A stretch of 64,000 nt of DNA from Deinococcales bacterium (lineage in GTDB: Bacteria > Deinococcota > Deinococci > Deinococcales > JAAFIG01): the NCBI GenBank assembly GCA_013298595.1, contig JAAFIG010000017.1, forward strand, positions 1,327 to 65,326. Direction: 5' to 3'. The position numbers and the translations under genes were made by a program. This document shows positions 1 through 64,000 of the stretch, piece after piece; within the stretch, counting starts at the first letter, position 1; every line of letters starts with the position of its first letter. A model generated the notes under the pieces. The model was given only the letters and a program-made list of their open reading frames with translations. It was not told the origin of the DNA and did no database searches.

Positions 1-1
1 G

Positions 2-1951
2 TACGGACGCGATGCCTTTGCGATGCTTTCGGGTGTGAGTTTAAGCACCGAAAAAAGTTATTTGGTTGGCAAGTTTGCACGGCTCGCCTTACAAACCGCC
101 AATCTCGATTACAACGGGCGGCTGTGCATGGTTTCAGCAGGGGCTGGCAACAAAAAAGCCTACGGTATTGACCGCTCGAGCAATTCTTGGGAAGACATTG
201 TGGATGCCAAAGTGATCTTTGTGATTGGTGCAAATGTAGCCGAATGCGCCCCAATCACCACCGATTATATTTGGCGAGCCAGAGACAAAGGTGCAAAACT
301 GATCTATGCCGACCCGCGCATGGTGCCAATGGCTCGGACTGCCGATTTATTCTTACCCTTAAAACCAGGTACAGACAGCGCCTTACTGATGAGTATGCTG
401 CACGTCATCATCCAAGAAAAACTGACCGATGATGCCTTTATTAAAAACCACACCACTGGCTTTGAAGAAGTACGCGAAGCTGTCAAGCACGCCCATCCAG
501 AATGGGCAGAGAAACTTACAGGCATCCCCGCTTTTCAGATTCGCCAAGCCGCCCGAATGTACGCCGAAGCACCGACAGGATTTATCCTCCACGCTCGCGG
601 ACTCGAGCATCAAACCAAAGGCGTGGACAATGTGGTCAGTTGCGCCAATCTGGCATTGGCAACAGGAAAAATTGGCAAGGCGGGTTGTGGTCACAGCACC
701 ATCACAGGACAAGGCAATGGTCAAGGTGGACGCGAACATGGTCATAAATGCGATCAGTTACCCGGCAACCGCGACATTAGCAATCCCGAACACCGCAAGT
801 ACATCGCCAGTATTTGGGGCTGCGAAGAAACCGAGATTCCCGGTAAAGGCTTATCCGCCCAAGAAATCATGAATGCGATTCACGCAGGCGAAATCAAAGG
901 ACTGTTATCCATCTGCTTTAACCCACTGGTCAGCTTACCCGATGCCAATTTTACTCGAGAAGCCCTCGAGAAACTCGAGCATTACAGCGTGATAGATTTT
1001 TTCTTATCCGAAACTGCCCAACACGCCGATATTGTCTTCCCCGGCAGCCTGCACGAAGAAGACGAAGGCACAGCCACCACCGCCGAAGGACGGGTCATTC
1101 GCATCAAAGCGGCTGTATCCCCACCGGGCGAAGCCAAACTCGACTGGCAAGTGCTGCTCGAGATTGCCAAACGCTTGGGACGCGGACAGTATTTTCCATA
1201 CACCAGCACCGAACAAATTTTTAATGAATTACGCCTTGCCTCCAAAGGTGGCACAGCCGATTACAGCGGCATTACATGGGAACGGCTCGAGCAACAACAA
1301 GGAATGTTCTGGCCCGTACCACAAACCACTGAAACAGGAAAGAACGCCACTCGAGTCGAGGATTTAGACACCAATCACACAGGTACACCACGCCTGTACG
1401 AAAACGGACGGTTTTATGACCCAGATGGCAAAGCCCACTTTAATGCCGTGCAATGGCGCGAACCTGCCGAAGTTGTGGACACAAAATACCCCATTTGGCT
1501 GACCACAGGACGAGTCATCAGCCAGTACCTCAGTGGAACACAAACCCGCCGAATCGGACCGCTTGTGGATATGTACCCAAACCCCTTGGTGGAAATGCAC
1601 CCACGATTAGCCCAAGCCCTGAACATCACCGATCAGCAATGGATAACCGTACAAACCAGACGCGGACAACTGACCTTACGCGCCTCCGTGGTCAAAACCA
1701 TACGCCCAGACACGATTTTTATCCCGTACCACTGGGGCGGCAAACAAAGCGCGAATTTACTGACCAACCGCGCCCTTGACCCCGTATCAAAAATCCCAGA
1801 ATTCAAGGTTTGCGCTTGTGATGTACGCCCCGCCACACCCGAAGAAATACTCGAGGGACGTAATGCTGAACTTGATGCAAACCGACTCGCACCAACCAAA
1901 GTATTTACCGACACCGAACTCGAGGCACGCAGACAGGAAGTGAAACGATGA
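2..1951 (+). CDS. Molybdopterin oxidoreductase catalytic subunit, Nas/Nap-type nitrate-reductase-like (5' end outside window)
   Basis: ORF 23..1951 stays open back to nt 2 ([11 protein letters not shown]) and lacks the N-terminal Fe-S Cys motif, so it is cut by the window edge. MopB-family blocks are present: [38 protein letters not shown]. Fe-S, Rieske and NarK genes follow. Confidence 0.8.
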
Positions 1952-2592
1952 GGGAACAACGCTTCTTCATAGACCCGATACGTTGCATCGGCTGCAAATC
2001 CTGTATGCAGGCGTGCAGCGAATGCGGCACACATCGAGGCAAAAGCATGATTCACCTCGAGTACATGGAACGCCAAACCAGCACCCAAACTGTACCGATG
2101 GTCTGTATGCACTGCGACAACCCAACCTGCGCGGCAGTCTGCCCCGCCGATGCCATCAAACGCACCCCAGATGGCGTGGTACAAAGCGCCCTCAAAGAAC
2201 GCTGCATAGGCTGCTCGAACTGCGTGATGGCGTGTCCGTTCGGCGTACCCCGTTACTACCCAGAAATAGACCAAATGCTCAAATGCGATATGTGCTACGA
2301 CCGCACCGCCTACGGATTACGCCCAATGTGCGCCACCGTCTGCCCATCCGAAGCCCTGTTCTACGGCACACTCGAGGAATTTGAAAAACGACGTGGCGGC
2401 ACACCCGTCAATCAATTTCAATTTGGGAATCAAATCATCACCACCAAAGTCTTCATGGTGCTACCAACAGGCGAAATGCAACTCGACATGGACGTAAGCG
2501 CCCACATGACCGACCCAACATTTCACAACGATGCCTTTGACCACATCAACCCATTTGATGGTCTCGAGACATACCAAACAGGAGCAGACTAA
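1948..2592 (+). CDS. 4Fe-4S multi-cluster ferredoxin-type electron-transfer subunit (DmsB/NrfC/HybA-like)
   Basis: Four Cys clusters: [44 protein letters not shown]...CATVCP. ATGA start/stop overlap with the upstream Mo subunit. Confidence 0.85.
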
Positions 2593-2593
2593 G

Positions 2594-3085
2594 ATGAAAA
2601 ACACCGAGCCACACTGGAAAACCGATTTCTCGGTAGACTGGGAACAAACATCATTCATCACCCGACGCGAATTCACCCGTTTCCTCGGACTCGGCAGTGC
2701 CGCCCTCGCCACAGGCAATGTACTCATGGTTGGCATCAACGCCACACGTACCGAAACCACCCGCCCTCGAGTCGAAATTAGCGAAGTAGACAGCATCAAA
2801 CCACGCGGATACAAAACCTTTGAATACCCAGAAAAAGGCAAACACGCCATACTATTACGCCACGAAGACGGCAGCCTCAGCGCCTACTCGCAACGCTGCC
2901 CACACCTCGGATGCAGCGTCTTCTACACCGAAGAACACAACCAACTCGAGTGCGCCTGCCACGAAGGATATTTTAGCCCACGTACAGGCGAAGTGATTGC
3001 AGGACCACCACAACGCGGACTGGCAAAAATCGAACTCGAGACCATCAACGGCAAGATATTCGCTATCGGAGGCGGTGAAGGATGA
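2594..3085 (+). CDS. Rieske 2Fe-2S protein with twin-arginine signal/anchor
   Basis: ORF 2531..3085. Likely ATG at 2594 preceded by GGAG. Has RREFTRFLGLGSAALA Tat-like motif plus hydrophobic segment, and Rieske boxes CPHLGC and CACHEGYF. Confidence 0.8.
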   Translation: MKNTEPHWKTDFSVDWEQTSFITRREFTRFLGLGSAALATGNVLMVGINATRTETTRPRVEISEVDSIKPRGYKTFEYPEKGKHAILLRHEDGSLSAYSQRCPHLGCSVFYTEEHNQLECACHEGYFSPRTGEVIAGPPQRGLAKIELETINGKIFAIGGGEG

Positions 3086-62492: not shown

Positions 62493-62501
62493 TGGTTCTC
62501 C

Positions 62502-63368
62502 TTATAGAAACTCGAGCAAGTTTTGGAGTAGCGCTTCAGGCGCTTCTTCTGGCAAGTAATGCCCACATAAAAGGGCTTGACCTTGGACATGATTGGCAAC
62601 TTCACGCCAAGTCTCGAGTGGTGTAAAACATTTTTCGATGGTGCCGTATTTTCCCCATAATGCCAATACTGGCATCTCAAGTTTATGGTTTGCCTGACGG
62701 TCTGCGCGGTCATGCTCGAGATCTATGCTGGCAGCCGCCCGATAATCTTGGCAACTGGCATGAATGGTGTTGGTGTCAAAACAACGCACATATTCCGCCC
62801 AAGCAGTTGTTGTAAATGGAGTCAGACCAGTTTCGCCTCGAGACATTCGAGCACGCAAATACCCTTCTGGGTCGGCAGCAATCATGGTTTCTGGCATTGG
62901 TGCAGGTTGAATCAAAAAAAACCAATGCCAGTACGCTTTGGCAAAAGCTTCGGTGGTGCGTTCGTACATGATTAAAGTTGGCGCAATATCGAGCACCACA
63001 AGTTTTTGCACAATTTGTGGATAATCAGCCGCTAAACGATGCGCCACTCGAGCGCCACGATCATGCCCTACAACAAAAAACTTTCCAAATCCAAGAGCAT
63101 TCATTAAACGCACTTGATCCAGTGCCATGAGGCGTTTGCTATACAAAGCAATATCACCAACAGGTTTACTCGAGTCGCCATAGCCACGTAAATCACTAAC
63201 AACAACTGTAAAGTGCTTAGCTAATTGTGGTGCAATTTTATGCCAAATGGCATGGGTTTGCGGATAACCATGCAGCAACAAAAGTGGCGTACCTTGCCCA
63301 CCTTGCAAAGCATGAATATACATGCCCTCACCAACATCAATCCGTTTTTGCAAAAAACCTTCAAACAT
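62502..63368 (-). CDS. Alpha/beta hydrolase (haloacetate dehalogenase/epoxide hydrolase-like)
   Basis: ORF 62502..63434, ATG at 63368. Blocks LLLLHGYPQTHAIWHKIAPQL and the nucleophile elbow VVGHDRGARVA. Confidence 0.75.
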   Translation of the reverse strand: MFEGFLQKRIDVGEGMYIHALQGGQGTPLLLLHGYPQTHAIWHKIAPQLAKHFTVVVSDLRGYGDSSKPVGDIALYSKRLMALDQVRLMNALGFGKFFVVGHDRGARVAHRLAADYPQIVQKLVVLDIAPTLIMYERTTEAFAKAYWHWFFLIQPAPMPETMIAADPEGYLRARMSRGETGLTPFTTTAWAEYVRCFDTNTIHASCQDYRAAASIDLEHDRADRQANHKLEMPVLALWGKYGTIEKCFTPLETWREVANHVQGQALLCGHYLPEEAPEALLQNLLEFL

Positions 63369-63369
63369 T

Positions 63370-64000
63370 TTACAATCCCAAATACGCCCGTTTGACAGCG
63401 TCGTTCTCGAGCAAGCCCTGACTTTGCCCTTCAATCACAAGTTTGCCATGCTCGAGCACATAGGCTCGATCAGTGATTTTTAATACCTGACGTACATTTT
63501 GTTCAACCAGCAAAACAGTCAGATGCAAAGTCCGTAAGCTATGAATCACTTGCATCACTTCTTGTACCACTTTTGGCGCTAAACCAAGACTGGGTTCATC
63601 CATCAAAAGGATGGTAGGTTCACTCATCAATGCCCGACCAATCGCAATCATTTGTTGTTCACCACCCGATAAAGACCCAGCAAAGAGTTTACGTTTCTCG
63701 AGTAACCGAGGAAAAAAAGCGTAGACTTTCTCGAGGTTTTGTTTTTTGTTGGCTTTGCTGCGTTTTAGGTACGCACCCATTTCAAGGTTCTCTTCGACAC
63801 TCATCGCAGGGAATAATTGTCTACCCATTGGTACGTGTGCCACGCCTAAATCGGTGAGCTGATGCGGACTGATGCCCGAGATCTCCTGACCTTGTAATAA
63901 AATACTGCCACGTTTTGGTTTAAGCATACCGCTGACAGCTCGTAAAATCGTGCTTTTACCGCTGCCATTACCACCCACTAAACCCACCAATTCTTGTTGT
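63370..64000 (-). CDS. ABC transporter ATP-binding protein, LivF-like (5' end outside window)
   Basis: The reading frame stays open to the window edge (QQELVGLVGGNGSGKST). Signature LSGGEQQMIAIGRAL, Walker B LLMDEPSLGL. Confidence 0.8.
   Translation of the reverse strand, partial: QQELVGLVGGNGSGKSTILRAVSGMLKPKRGSILLQGQEISGISPHQLTDLGVAHVPMGRQLFPAMSVEENLEMGAYLKRSKANKKQNLEKVYAFFPRLLEKRKLFAGSLSGGEQQMIAIGRALMSEPTILLMDEPSLGLAPKVVQEVMQVIHSLRTLHLTVLLVEQNVRQVLKITDRAYVLEHGKLVIEGQSQGLLENDAVKRAYLGL

Follow-up and report, generated by a model that had tools for sequence, protein, structure and literature searches.

CTCGAG as a probable iterated palindrome of the HIP type in an uncultured Deinococcales lineage

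The known highly iterated palindromes (HIPs) are those of cyanobacteria, namely HIP1 (GCGATCGC) and the alternates GGGATCCC, GGCGCC, GCsGC, rCCGGy, and TCGATCGA (Elhai 2015, PMC4390886; Xu et al. 2018, PMC5861425). A matching methyltransferase is present in every cyanobacterial HIP genome, and the one-off variants of HIP1 deviate chiefly at its outer positions (Elhai, PMC4390886). Selection appears to act on the distribution of HIP1 and not on single sites (Xu et al., PMC5861425), and transformation is boosted by methylated HIP1 (bioRxiv 10.1101/2024.09.10.611283). The subject of this work is the word CTCGAG in a stretch of 64,000 bases from a Deinococcales bacterium (contig JAAFIG010000017.1, positions 1,327 to 65,326, assembly GCA_013298595.1), called the window throughout. 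An earlier note on the same DNA had presented CTCGAG as a hyper-abundant palindrome whose behaviour parallels that of HIP1. To our knowledge, the function and origin of HIPs are still open some three decades after HIP1 was described, and every known case is cyanobacterial.

CTCGAG is a known target of 5-methylcytosine (m5C) methylation in Halorubrum sp. BOL3-1 (PMC8112702) and does not appear in Elhai's HIP survey (PMC4390886). No description of an over-representation of CTCGAG, or of the related 8-mer CCTCGAGG, in Deinococcota or in any other prokaryote was found in open-access full text, which does not span all literature or REBASE.

Abundance and placement of CTCGAG in the window

The window contains 385 copies of CTCGAG, which correspond to one per 166 bp or 6,016 per Mb and make up 3.6% of its bases. 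This field extends from 1 to 64000 without strand, and its density is uniform, with 17-34 copies per 4 kb. Base composition (46.9% GC) predicts 13.6 copies, and 100 dinucleotide-preserving shuffles gave 6.9 +/- 2.5, with a maximum of 14, so that none of the 100 reached the observed number; the excess over these two expectations is 28-55-fold. A third-order Markov model, which already takes in the excess of CTCG, TCGA, and CGAG that CTCGAG itself makes, expects 120 copies. CTCGAG ranks first among the 4096 hexamers, ranks 2-6 are all its own overlapping sub-words, and it is the only enriched word among the 64 palindromic hexamers. The control palindromes GAGCTC, GTCGAC, and TTCGAA are absent and CTGCAG is found twice. 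The one-off variants of CTCGAG are at or under expectation (0.1-1.4 times), 95 of them deviating at positions 1/6, 38 at positions 2/5, and 54 at positions 3/4. The local counts of the earlier note (17 copies in nucleotides 1-3120, 26 in a helicase gene at 24297-29381, and 20 in an McrB-like gene at 37302-40388) were exact, and its estimate of one copy per 150-200 bp, with about 14 expected in the window, agrees with the complete count. The checks that it had proposed, a ranking of hexamers against a third-order Markov model and a comparison with GAGCTC and the one-off variants, both favour its claim.

The gene map, a simple longest-open reading frame (ORF) map, comprises 57 genes and covers 94% of the window. 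As the earlier note had stated, the word occurs in all three codon phases (230 copies as CTC-GAG, 74 as xCT-CGA-Gxx, and 63 as xxC-TCG-AGx) as well as in intergenic DNA: 18 copies are non-coding, with one per 203 bp in 3.7 kb of non-coding sequence versus one per 164 bp in coding sequence. The tally of Leu-Glu codon pairs, another of the proposed checks, gave 231 pairs spelled CTC-GAG among 318 (73%), against a codon-aware expectation of 5.3 (ratio 44, log-odds about 5); CTC accounts for 9% of the Leu codons away from Glu and GAG for 18% of the Glu codons away from Leu. The spelling GAG-CTC is used in none of the 139 Glu-Leu pairs. Of the synonymous opportunities to write the word, those at Leu-Glu are realised in 73% of the cases, those at [PSTA]-Arg-[VADEG] in 64%, and those at x-Ser-[Ser/Arg] in 43%. 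The proteins are indeed inflated in Leu-Glu, which is the most over-represented dipeptide of the window (observed/expected 2.17), the corresponding value for Glu-Leu being 0.95.

The spacing of the copies was compared with 5,000 simulations of random scatter. The coefficient of variation of the gaps is 0.86, versus 0.99 +/- 0.05 in the simulations, and both very short gaps (30 below 30 bp, versus 62 +/- 7) and very long ones (21 above 400 bp, versus 34 +/- 4) are fewer than simulated. For sites less than 20 bp apart the pair correlation amounts to 0.2-0.5; it stays under 1 up to about 80-100 bp and is flat further out, and no long-range periodicity was detectable within the 64 kb. Opportunities that have not been converted to CTCGAG lie at a median of 39 bp from the nearest other site, versus 78 bp for the converted ones (P = 1e-6), and the direction of this difference is the same in the three frames. 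The realised fraction increases with this distance, from 14% below 12 bp to about 50% at 12-40 bp and 63% at 40-60 bp, and reaches a plateau of 78% (81-88% for Leu-Glu) at 60 bp or more. When distances are pooled, the realised share is 54% for opportunities 12-60 bp away from another site and 75% for those at least 60 bp away (Fisher P = 2e-7).

No 14-mer around a CTCGAG site is seen more than twice, the composition of the flanks is near background, and the coding sites lie in-frame within long intact ORFs with ordinary Pfam domains. The lack of an extended flanking consensus, as claimed in the earlier note, therefore holds as regards these near-background flanks, but that note missed an avoidance of the 8-mer CCTCGAGG, which is seen twice in the window versus 11.6 expected (P = 7e-4). 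With respect to the claimed HIP1-like behaviour, several of its elements are present: CTCGAG is the top hexamer, occupies all frames and non-coding DNA, has no longer repeat unit, and shows variants mostly at the outer positions.

Distribution among relatives and in a shared defence cassette

The MreB gene (50833..51879, minus strand) was used as placement marker; strong constraint on the protein leaves it with just two copies of CTCGAG (1.9 per kb). MreB places the window in Deinococcota, with uncultured relatives at 98, 91, 81, and 78% identity. Among named species, Deinobacterium chartae comes nearest (72%), ahead of Deinococcus, Trueperaceae, and Marinithermus. Cluster members are metagenome-assembled genomes labelled 'Deinococcota bacterium' or 'Deinococcales bacterium', and the best genome-contig match in the MreB scan was 69%. 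The loci of the carrier relatives span 2-21 kb each and about 90 kb in all.

CTCGAG is the top hexamer, and GAGCTC is absent, in three groups of relatives: L081/L082 (MreB 98%, GC 52%, one copy per 267-294 bp), L083-L086 (MreB 91%, GC 60%, one per 152-174 bp), and L091/L092 (MreB 78%, GC 59%, one per 180 bp). It is also the top hexamer in the cultured D. chartae (L089, GC 67%), with 67 copies in 21 kb and five of GAGCTC. The iterated word of this species is the 8-mer CCTCGAGG, which has 37 copies versus 0.8 expected and makes up 37 of the 67 CTCGAG sites. At the CTCGAG sites of the carriers of the 6-mer (window, L083, L091, and L092) the same 8-mer is found five times versus about 26 expected. 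It looks like opposite pressures act on CCTCGAGG in sister lineages, the 8-mer being avoided in the 6-mer carriers and iterated in D. chartae. A further relative, L090 (MreB 81%, GC 73%, 2.5 kb), has 10 CTCGAG and five GAGCTC; it was considered ambiguous and left out of the carriers. The non-carriers are L087 (MreB 78%; one copy in 12.9 kb), L088 (MreB 77%; three in 18.5 kb), Deinococcus cellulosilyticus (L093, GCA_042656985.1, MreB 69%; two in 21 kb), and L001 (CAWIOW010000020.1, MreB 69%; none in 21 kb).

Carriers are not monophyletic in a neighbour-joining tree of the single gene MreB, and their GC contents, window included, are 47, 52, 60, 59, and 67%. The proteome effect follows the word: Leu-Glu has an observed/expected value of 1.8-2.6 in the carriers other than the window, and 67-75% of the pairs are spelled CTCGAG in all carriers, versus 0.9-1.4 and 0-8% in the non-carriers. 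Even in MreB, the conserved Leu-Glu at alignment column 846 is written CTCGAG by each of the carriers, the non-carriers having CTGGAA, TTGGAG, or CTAGAA, and at column 378 a Val-Glu has become Leu-Glu in carriers. The trait has been recovered from independent Joint Genome Institute (JGI) metagenome assemblies (samples 3300081957, 3300081881, and 3300079842) and from one isolate genome, and it belongs to lineages, independently of GC content and of particular genes. The 'genome-style' character that the earlier note ascribed to the word is borne out by its uniform density over 64 kb, by the equal saturation of core genes and of the cassette described below, and by the relatives assembled independently.

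The positions of the copies are less stable than their number. In a syntenic block of three carriers (window, L083, and L091), 16 of 56 site positions are shared. This block includes the LpxC, LpxD-like, and S55-like genes of the window (47171..50803, minus strand), in which the carriers have similar per-gene counts (14/11/11 and 7/8/8) and differ in most positions. What is maintained is the density and spacing of CTCGAG and not particular positions.

A defence cassette located downstream of tRNA-Thr (window region 23782-41608) provides a comparison of the same genes in different hosts. It is present with the same gene order in the megaplasmid MP1 of D. radiodurans R1 (L214, NC_000958.1 157173-175799) and in the plasmid pRadio2 of D. 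radiophilus (L215). The five shared genes, whose products have 51-69% amino acid identity, contain 83 copies of CTCGAG in the window, whereas both Deinococcus versions are free of the word. All of them are on the plus strand. Gene 1 (24297..29381) codes for a DEAD/MZB helicase (DruE/DrmA-like) and has 26 sites, its orthologues of D. radiodurans MP1 and D. radiophilus (64-65% identity) having none. Gene 2 (29302..32175), coding for an SNF2 helicase (DpdE/DrmD-like), has 14 sites and orthologues (67-69% identity) with none, and gene 3 (32172..35897), coding for an N6-adenine DNA methyltransferase of the Eco57I/DrmMI type, has 15 sites versus none in the D. radiophilus orthologue. The McrB-like gene (37302-40388) and the McrC gene (40385-41608) have 20 and eight sites, respectively, and none in the D. 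radiodurans orthologues. The plasmid regions under-represent the word, with three copies versus 10.9 expected in D. radiodurans and one versus 14.9 expected in D. radiophilus.

Conversion of Leu-Glu to CTC-GAG reaches 69% in the cassette and 74% in core genes. Of 82 comparisons made at the in-frame sites of the window, 31 show Leu-Glu in the orthologue, whereas 67 show Leu followed by any residue; therefore, many sites arose when the residue after Leu was replaced by Glu. Word-creating changes, including amino acid changes (typically from Leu-x to Leu-Glu), are fixed far beyond what codon usage and composition allow. As judged from these orthologues, the host lineage rewrites any DNA residing in it to the native density of CTCGAG.

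Several local features of the window can be added. The tightest cluster (954..979, no strand) has sites at 954, 965, and 974, a close spacing that is rare in the window. The longest stretch devoid of CTCGAG (23778..24826, no strand; 1,055 bp between site starts) covers tRNA-Thr and the left junction of the cassette. That the tRNA (23782-23856) has no copy, as the earlier note had pointed out, is correct and uninformative at 75 bp. Other unusually long site-free stretches are 34356-35289, 36517-37095, 5695-6587, and 10995-11788. The first of these corresponds to residues ~726-1039 of the methyltransferase, which are its C-terminal and specificity part, and the second is a 192-amino-acid ORF with an HExxH-like motif and no CTCGAG. 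Such stretches may have been exchanged recently and still await conversion. The mostly non-coding stretch inside the cassette (35908..37109, no strand) has sites at 35908, 36215, 36338, 36436, and 37104.

The cassette itself is divided by PADLOC among the Druantia, Dpd, and DISARM models, and it may represent a separate type of helicase-methylase system, characteristic of Deinococcus. The D. radiodurans R1 version has a split methyltransferase, behind which lies an ISDra3 transposase. Adjoining mreB there is a set of LpxD-like, LpxC, FabZ-like, LpxA-like, and LpxB-like genes (44721-49107, minus strand), together with an MsbA-like ABC transporter (43084-44724); this cluster is partly present in L083, L087, and L091. 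The best-known members of Deinococcota have been reported to be without classical lipopolysaccharide (LPS).

Palindromes other than CTCGAG are purged from the window. GGCC is found three times and CCGG 22 times, versus 193 expected in each case, 21 of the 64 palindromic hexamers are absent, and the median observed/expected value is 0.17 for palindromic hexamers versus 0.83 for non-palindromes. The avoidance of GGCC is common to the window, L081, and L083, but not to L091. This purge suggests that, as in cyanobacteria, the DNA has long been confronted with many Type II restriction systems. TCGA, the TaqI-type core, is strongly avoided in non-carriers, with three copies in 21 kb of L001 (about 80 expected) and 20 in 12.9 kb of L087; this suggests that restriction systems of the TCGA family circulate among these relatives. 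D. radiodurans, D. radiophilus, and L001 under-represent CTCGAG or TCGA. TGGCCA and TTTAAA were considered as alternate iterated palindromes of L087 and L088 and rejected: their 4-7-fold excess by composition is only 1.2-1.7-fold over the third-order Markov model, and they are not top words. GC content varies between 47 and 60% in lineages that share 78-98% identity in the MreB protein, and MreB nucleotide identity is 82% where amino acid identity is 98%. Base composition has drifted fast within the clade while the CTCGAG trait persisted.

Origin and maintenance of the word

Two simple explanations would make the abundance of CTCGAG trivial. According to one of them, the word is a by-product of codon usage or amino acid preference, CTC/GAG or Leu-Glu being favoured. 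Sixty-three percent of the coding sites are indeed in the CTC-GAG frame, and there are high-GC phage contigs that reach one CTCGAG per 150-250 bp by codon bias alone. However, in these contigs, as in codon-biased genomes, GAGCTC is about as frequent as CTCGAG and the codon-aware ratio is 1.7-2.9, whereas the window has no GAGCTC and a ratio of 44; outside the word, CTC and GAG are minor codons there, the two other frames and the non-coding DNA are just as loaded, Glu-Leu is unenriched, and the orthologues of non-carriers are without sites. The tests by which the claim of the earlier note could have failed all favoured it, and the enrichment is not due to codon or amino acid bias, an explanation that has hardly any probability left. 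An even smaller one is given to a dispersed repeat or miniature mobile element, or to XhoI sites added as an artefact of cloning, assembly, or linkers. Some viral contigs are in fact dense in CTCGAG through repeated identical 8-mers, but the flank analysis, the in-frame position of the sites in intact ORFs, and the recovery of the trait in independent assemblies and in an isolate genome refute this possibility for the window. The viral contigs come from a scan of IMG/VR for three CTCGAG spaced 60-90 bp, which gave 120 loci. Dense loci were either high-GC with equal GAGCTC, that is, codon bias, or repeat arrays, so that no phage counterpart was retained. Two of them, L131 (14 copies of CCTCGAGC in 3.4 kb) and L196 (19 copies of GCTCGAGA in 9.7 kb), have no GAGCTC and are probably repeat arrays and not cases of the iterated-palindrome phenomenon.

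Two other explanations take the word to be functional. Drive by an uptake or recombination signal without repair would mean that DNA of kin carrying CTCGAG is preferred by the transformation or recombination machinery and spreads by molecular drive, an idea already put forward for the uptake words of Neisseria and Haemophilus and more recently for HIP1. Build-up in all frames, effects on the proteome, and diminishing returns near existing copies are predicted by it and all are seen, density is conserved while positions turn over, and recent work argues that HIP1 serves as a signal for uptake or for enhanced recombination. In addition, the range of interference (60-100 bp) would be of the order of minimal recombination segments, and Deinococcus and Thermus are naturally transformable. 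On the other hand, known uptake signals are non-palindromic words of 9-12 nt present about once per kb, unlike a 6-nt palindrome found once per 166 bp, and we know of no uptake specificity on record for Deinococcota. Uptake signals are also usually depleted in recent acquisitions, while the imported cassette, which may be recent or old, is as saturated as the core. We regard this explanation as unlikely, although clearly less so than direct selection for a dense coverage, to which we give a small probability. In the latter case an abundant dimeric protein that binds or modifies DNA would have CTCGAG as its target, and its presence at regular intervals would be useful in its own right, for instance in nucleoid organisation or as a 'self' label stopping translocating helicase-nuclease defences such as the DISARM/Dpd-like cassette or McrBC. 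The even spacing with few long gaps, a short-range exclusion of about 60 bp that resembles a footprint, and a per-gene density conserved between carriers agree with dense coverage, as do the presence of a helicase-based defence cassette in the window and the selection on the distribution of HIP1, and not on single sites, reported by Xu et al. (PMC5861425). Nevertheless, the same cassette is present in D. radiodurans and D. radiophilus, where CTCGAG is under-represented, so that it can do without the word; the analysis gave no candidate for the binding protein, and no long-range periodicity was detectable in 64 kb.

The explanation that we consider probable, and favour, is that CTCGAG is an iterated palindrome of the HIP type kept by a directional process at the DNA level that is tied to a CTCGAG-specific recognition system. 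The confidence expressed in this statement is a compromise between its two parts. The existence of a HIP-type, lineage-specific directional process acting on DNA is very likely, whereas the proposal that its agent is a methylation-linked recognition system, made by analogy, is held tentatively and with slightly more doubt than conviction. From the log-odds across contexts, the scaled strength of the process is estimated at roughly 3-6 per site.

The mechanism could be as follows. In this uncultured Deinococcales lineage, a pressure on DNA itself would create and keep a copy of CTCGAG roughly every 100-200 bp, and it would be blind to reading frame, coding status, and gene origin. As the spacing shows, the benefit of a new copy fades when another one is present within about 60 bp, leading to even spacing and to positions that turn over at constant density. 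By analogy with HIP1 and its alternates, the source of the pressure may be a resident enzyme system recognising CTCGAG (CCTCGAGG in D. chartae), its most likely writer being a DNA methyltransferase that marks the word. The mark would be read when choosing the strand or the DNA molecule to keep, either in repair or in the uptake and recombination of transforming DNA, and this choice would favour the retention of variants creating the word. The patchy occurrence in close relatives and the switch between 6-mer and 8-mer fit a horizontally acquired and exchangeable specificity factor, such as a methyltransferase.

Several results weigh against this explanation. A screen of essentially all window ORFs with Pfam, PADLOC, and NCBIfam found no CTCGAG-specific methyltransferase, endonuclease, or Vsr-type gene in the 64 kb, and neither did the roughly 90 kb of carrier DNA provide one. 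A probe with M.TaqI (its sequence checked against PDB) gave no Deinococcales homologue among the top matches, which were orthologues of Thermus, Anaerolineae, and Armatimonadota alone. Transition one-off variants are not depleted (observed/expected 1.0-1.4). The interference range of about 60 bp is far under the reach of about 1 kb in the mismatch-repair model of Elhai, and the density is 3-6 times that of any HIP. Besides, 64 kb of this genome have been seen, and 'genome-wide' is deduced from the uniformity of the window and from the relatives.

Some of these points also restrict the possible agents. The sole DNA methyltransferase of the window is the DrmMI/Type IIG-like enzyme of cassette gene 3, and it was rejected as cause of the trait because its family is widespread in non-carrier Deinococcus. 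A simple ratchet of Vsr-type repair, turning T:G into C:G at a single position, would deplete transition variants, and the values observed argue against it. A mismatch-repair reach of about 1 kb cannot set a spacing governed by interference over some 60 bp, a scale that would be nearer to recombination segments, protein footprints, or hairpins between neighbouring copies; if the principle is shared with HIPs, the reader of the mark is probably different. An XisH (3737-4264) and XisI (3405-3746) gene pair is located at 3405-4264 on the minus strand. Elsewhere, members of these families are typically found in cyanobacteria, the phylum with HIP1, which may be a coincidence; XisH probably has a nuclease-like fold.

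A bolder version of the same idea, which is possible but rather doubtful, is that a group of Deinococcales would use CTCGAG (CCTCGAGG in D. chartae) as an identity mark over the whole chromosome, with a swappable sequence-specific writer and a reader machine acting over about 60-100 bp, either in recombination/uptake or as a repair/defence scanner, whose drive (a scaled advantage of about 3-6 per site) would overwrite imported genes. If this were true, thousands of amino acids would have been changed per proteome, this would be the first HIP-type system outside cyanobacteria, and the cultured strain would offer an experimental handle on HIP function.

Comparison with known systems

With an independent case in Deinococcota, the phenomenon is no longer peculiar to cyanobacteria. 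This case also provides a natural experiment, since one mobile cassette has 83 sites in one host and none in others, and since sister lineages have the 6-mer, the 8-mer, or neither. The case quantifies how strongly a drive at the DNA level reshapes proteins, Leu-Glu being doubled, and the cultured D. chartae (DSM 21458, GCA_014202645.1) makes experimental tests feasible. On the practical side, genome-scan tools that take k-mer composition as a neutral background, such as those for binning, detection of horizontal transfer, and codon-usage models, misjudge such genomes.

CTCGAG and CCTCGAGG are the recognition sequences of enzymes of the XhoI/PaeR7I and AbsI types. Genomes hosting restriction-modification systems of these types normally avoid their own site, whereas CTCGAG is enriched here. 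In the Dcm/Vsr system of E. coli (CCWGG), a repair enzyme increases the frequency of a methyltransferase target by turning near-cognate mismatches into it, which is a point in common with the mechanism considered above. This effect is modest in E. coli. Moreover, the T-containing variant is depleted there, while enrichment in the window is 28-55-fold and transition variants are not depleted.

The DNA uptake sequences (DUS) of Neisseria and the uptake signal sequences (USS) of Pasteurellaceae are also short words over-represented throughout the genome, present in all coding frames, and able to alter peptide composition. They are explained by molecular drive in naturally transformable bacteria, and their density is self-limiting, as is the case here. 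However, they are orientation-specific, non-palindromic words of 9-12 nt that occur about once per kb, are depleted in recent acquisitions, and have a known receptor, whereas CTCGAG is a 6-nt palindrome found once per 166 bp and saturates an imported cassette.

HIP1 and the other HIPs are the closest systems, with some differences. The CTCGAG case is found in Deinococcota and its word is of the XhoI type; the 6-mer reaches about 6,000 copies per Mb, compared to 1,000-2,000 per Mb for HIPs. Interference extends over about 60 bp, instead of the saturation at about 1 kb or the periodicity of tens of kb of HIP1, and the effect on the proteome is marked (Leu-Glu 2.2-fold). A cognate methyltransferase defines the association of HIPs with methyltransferases, and the accessible carrier DNA has no match for it. 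The features in common are numerous. In both cases a short GC-rich palindrome is extremely over-represented without being part of a longer repeat, occupies all frames and non-coding DNA, is distributed more evenly than random (here at short range), and keeps its density rather than its positions. One-off variants are concentrated at the outer positions and other palindromes are strongly avoided. Finally, related lineages have related words, CTCGAG and CCTCGAGG here and CGATCG within GCGATCGC in cyanobacteria.

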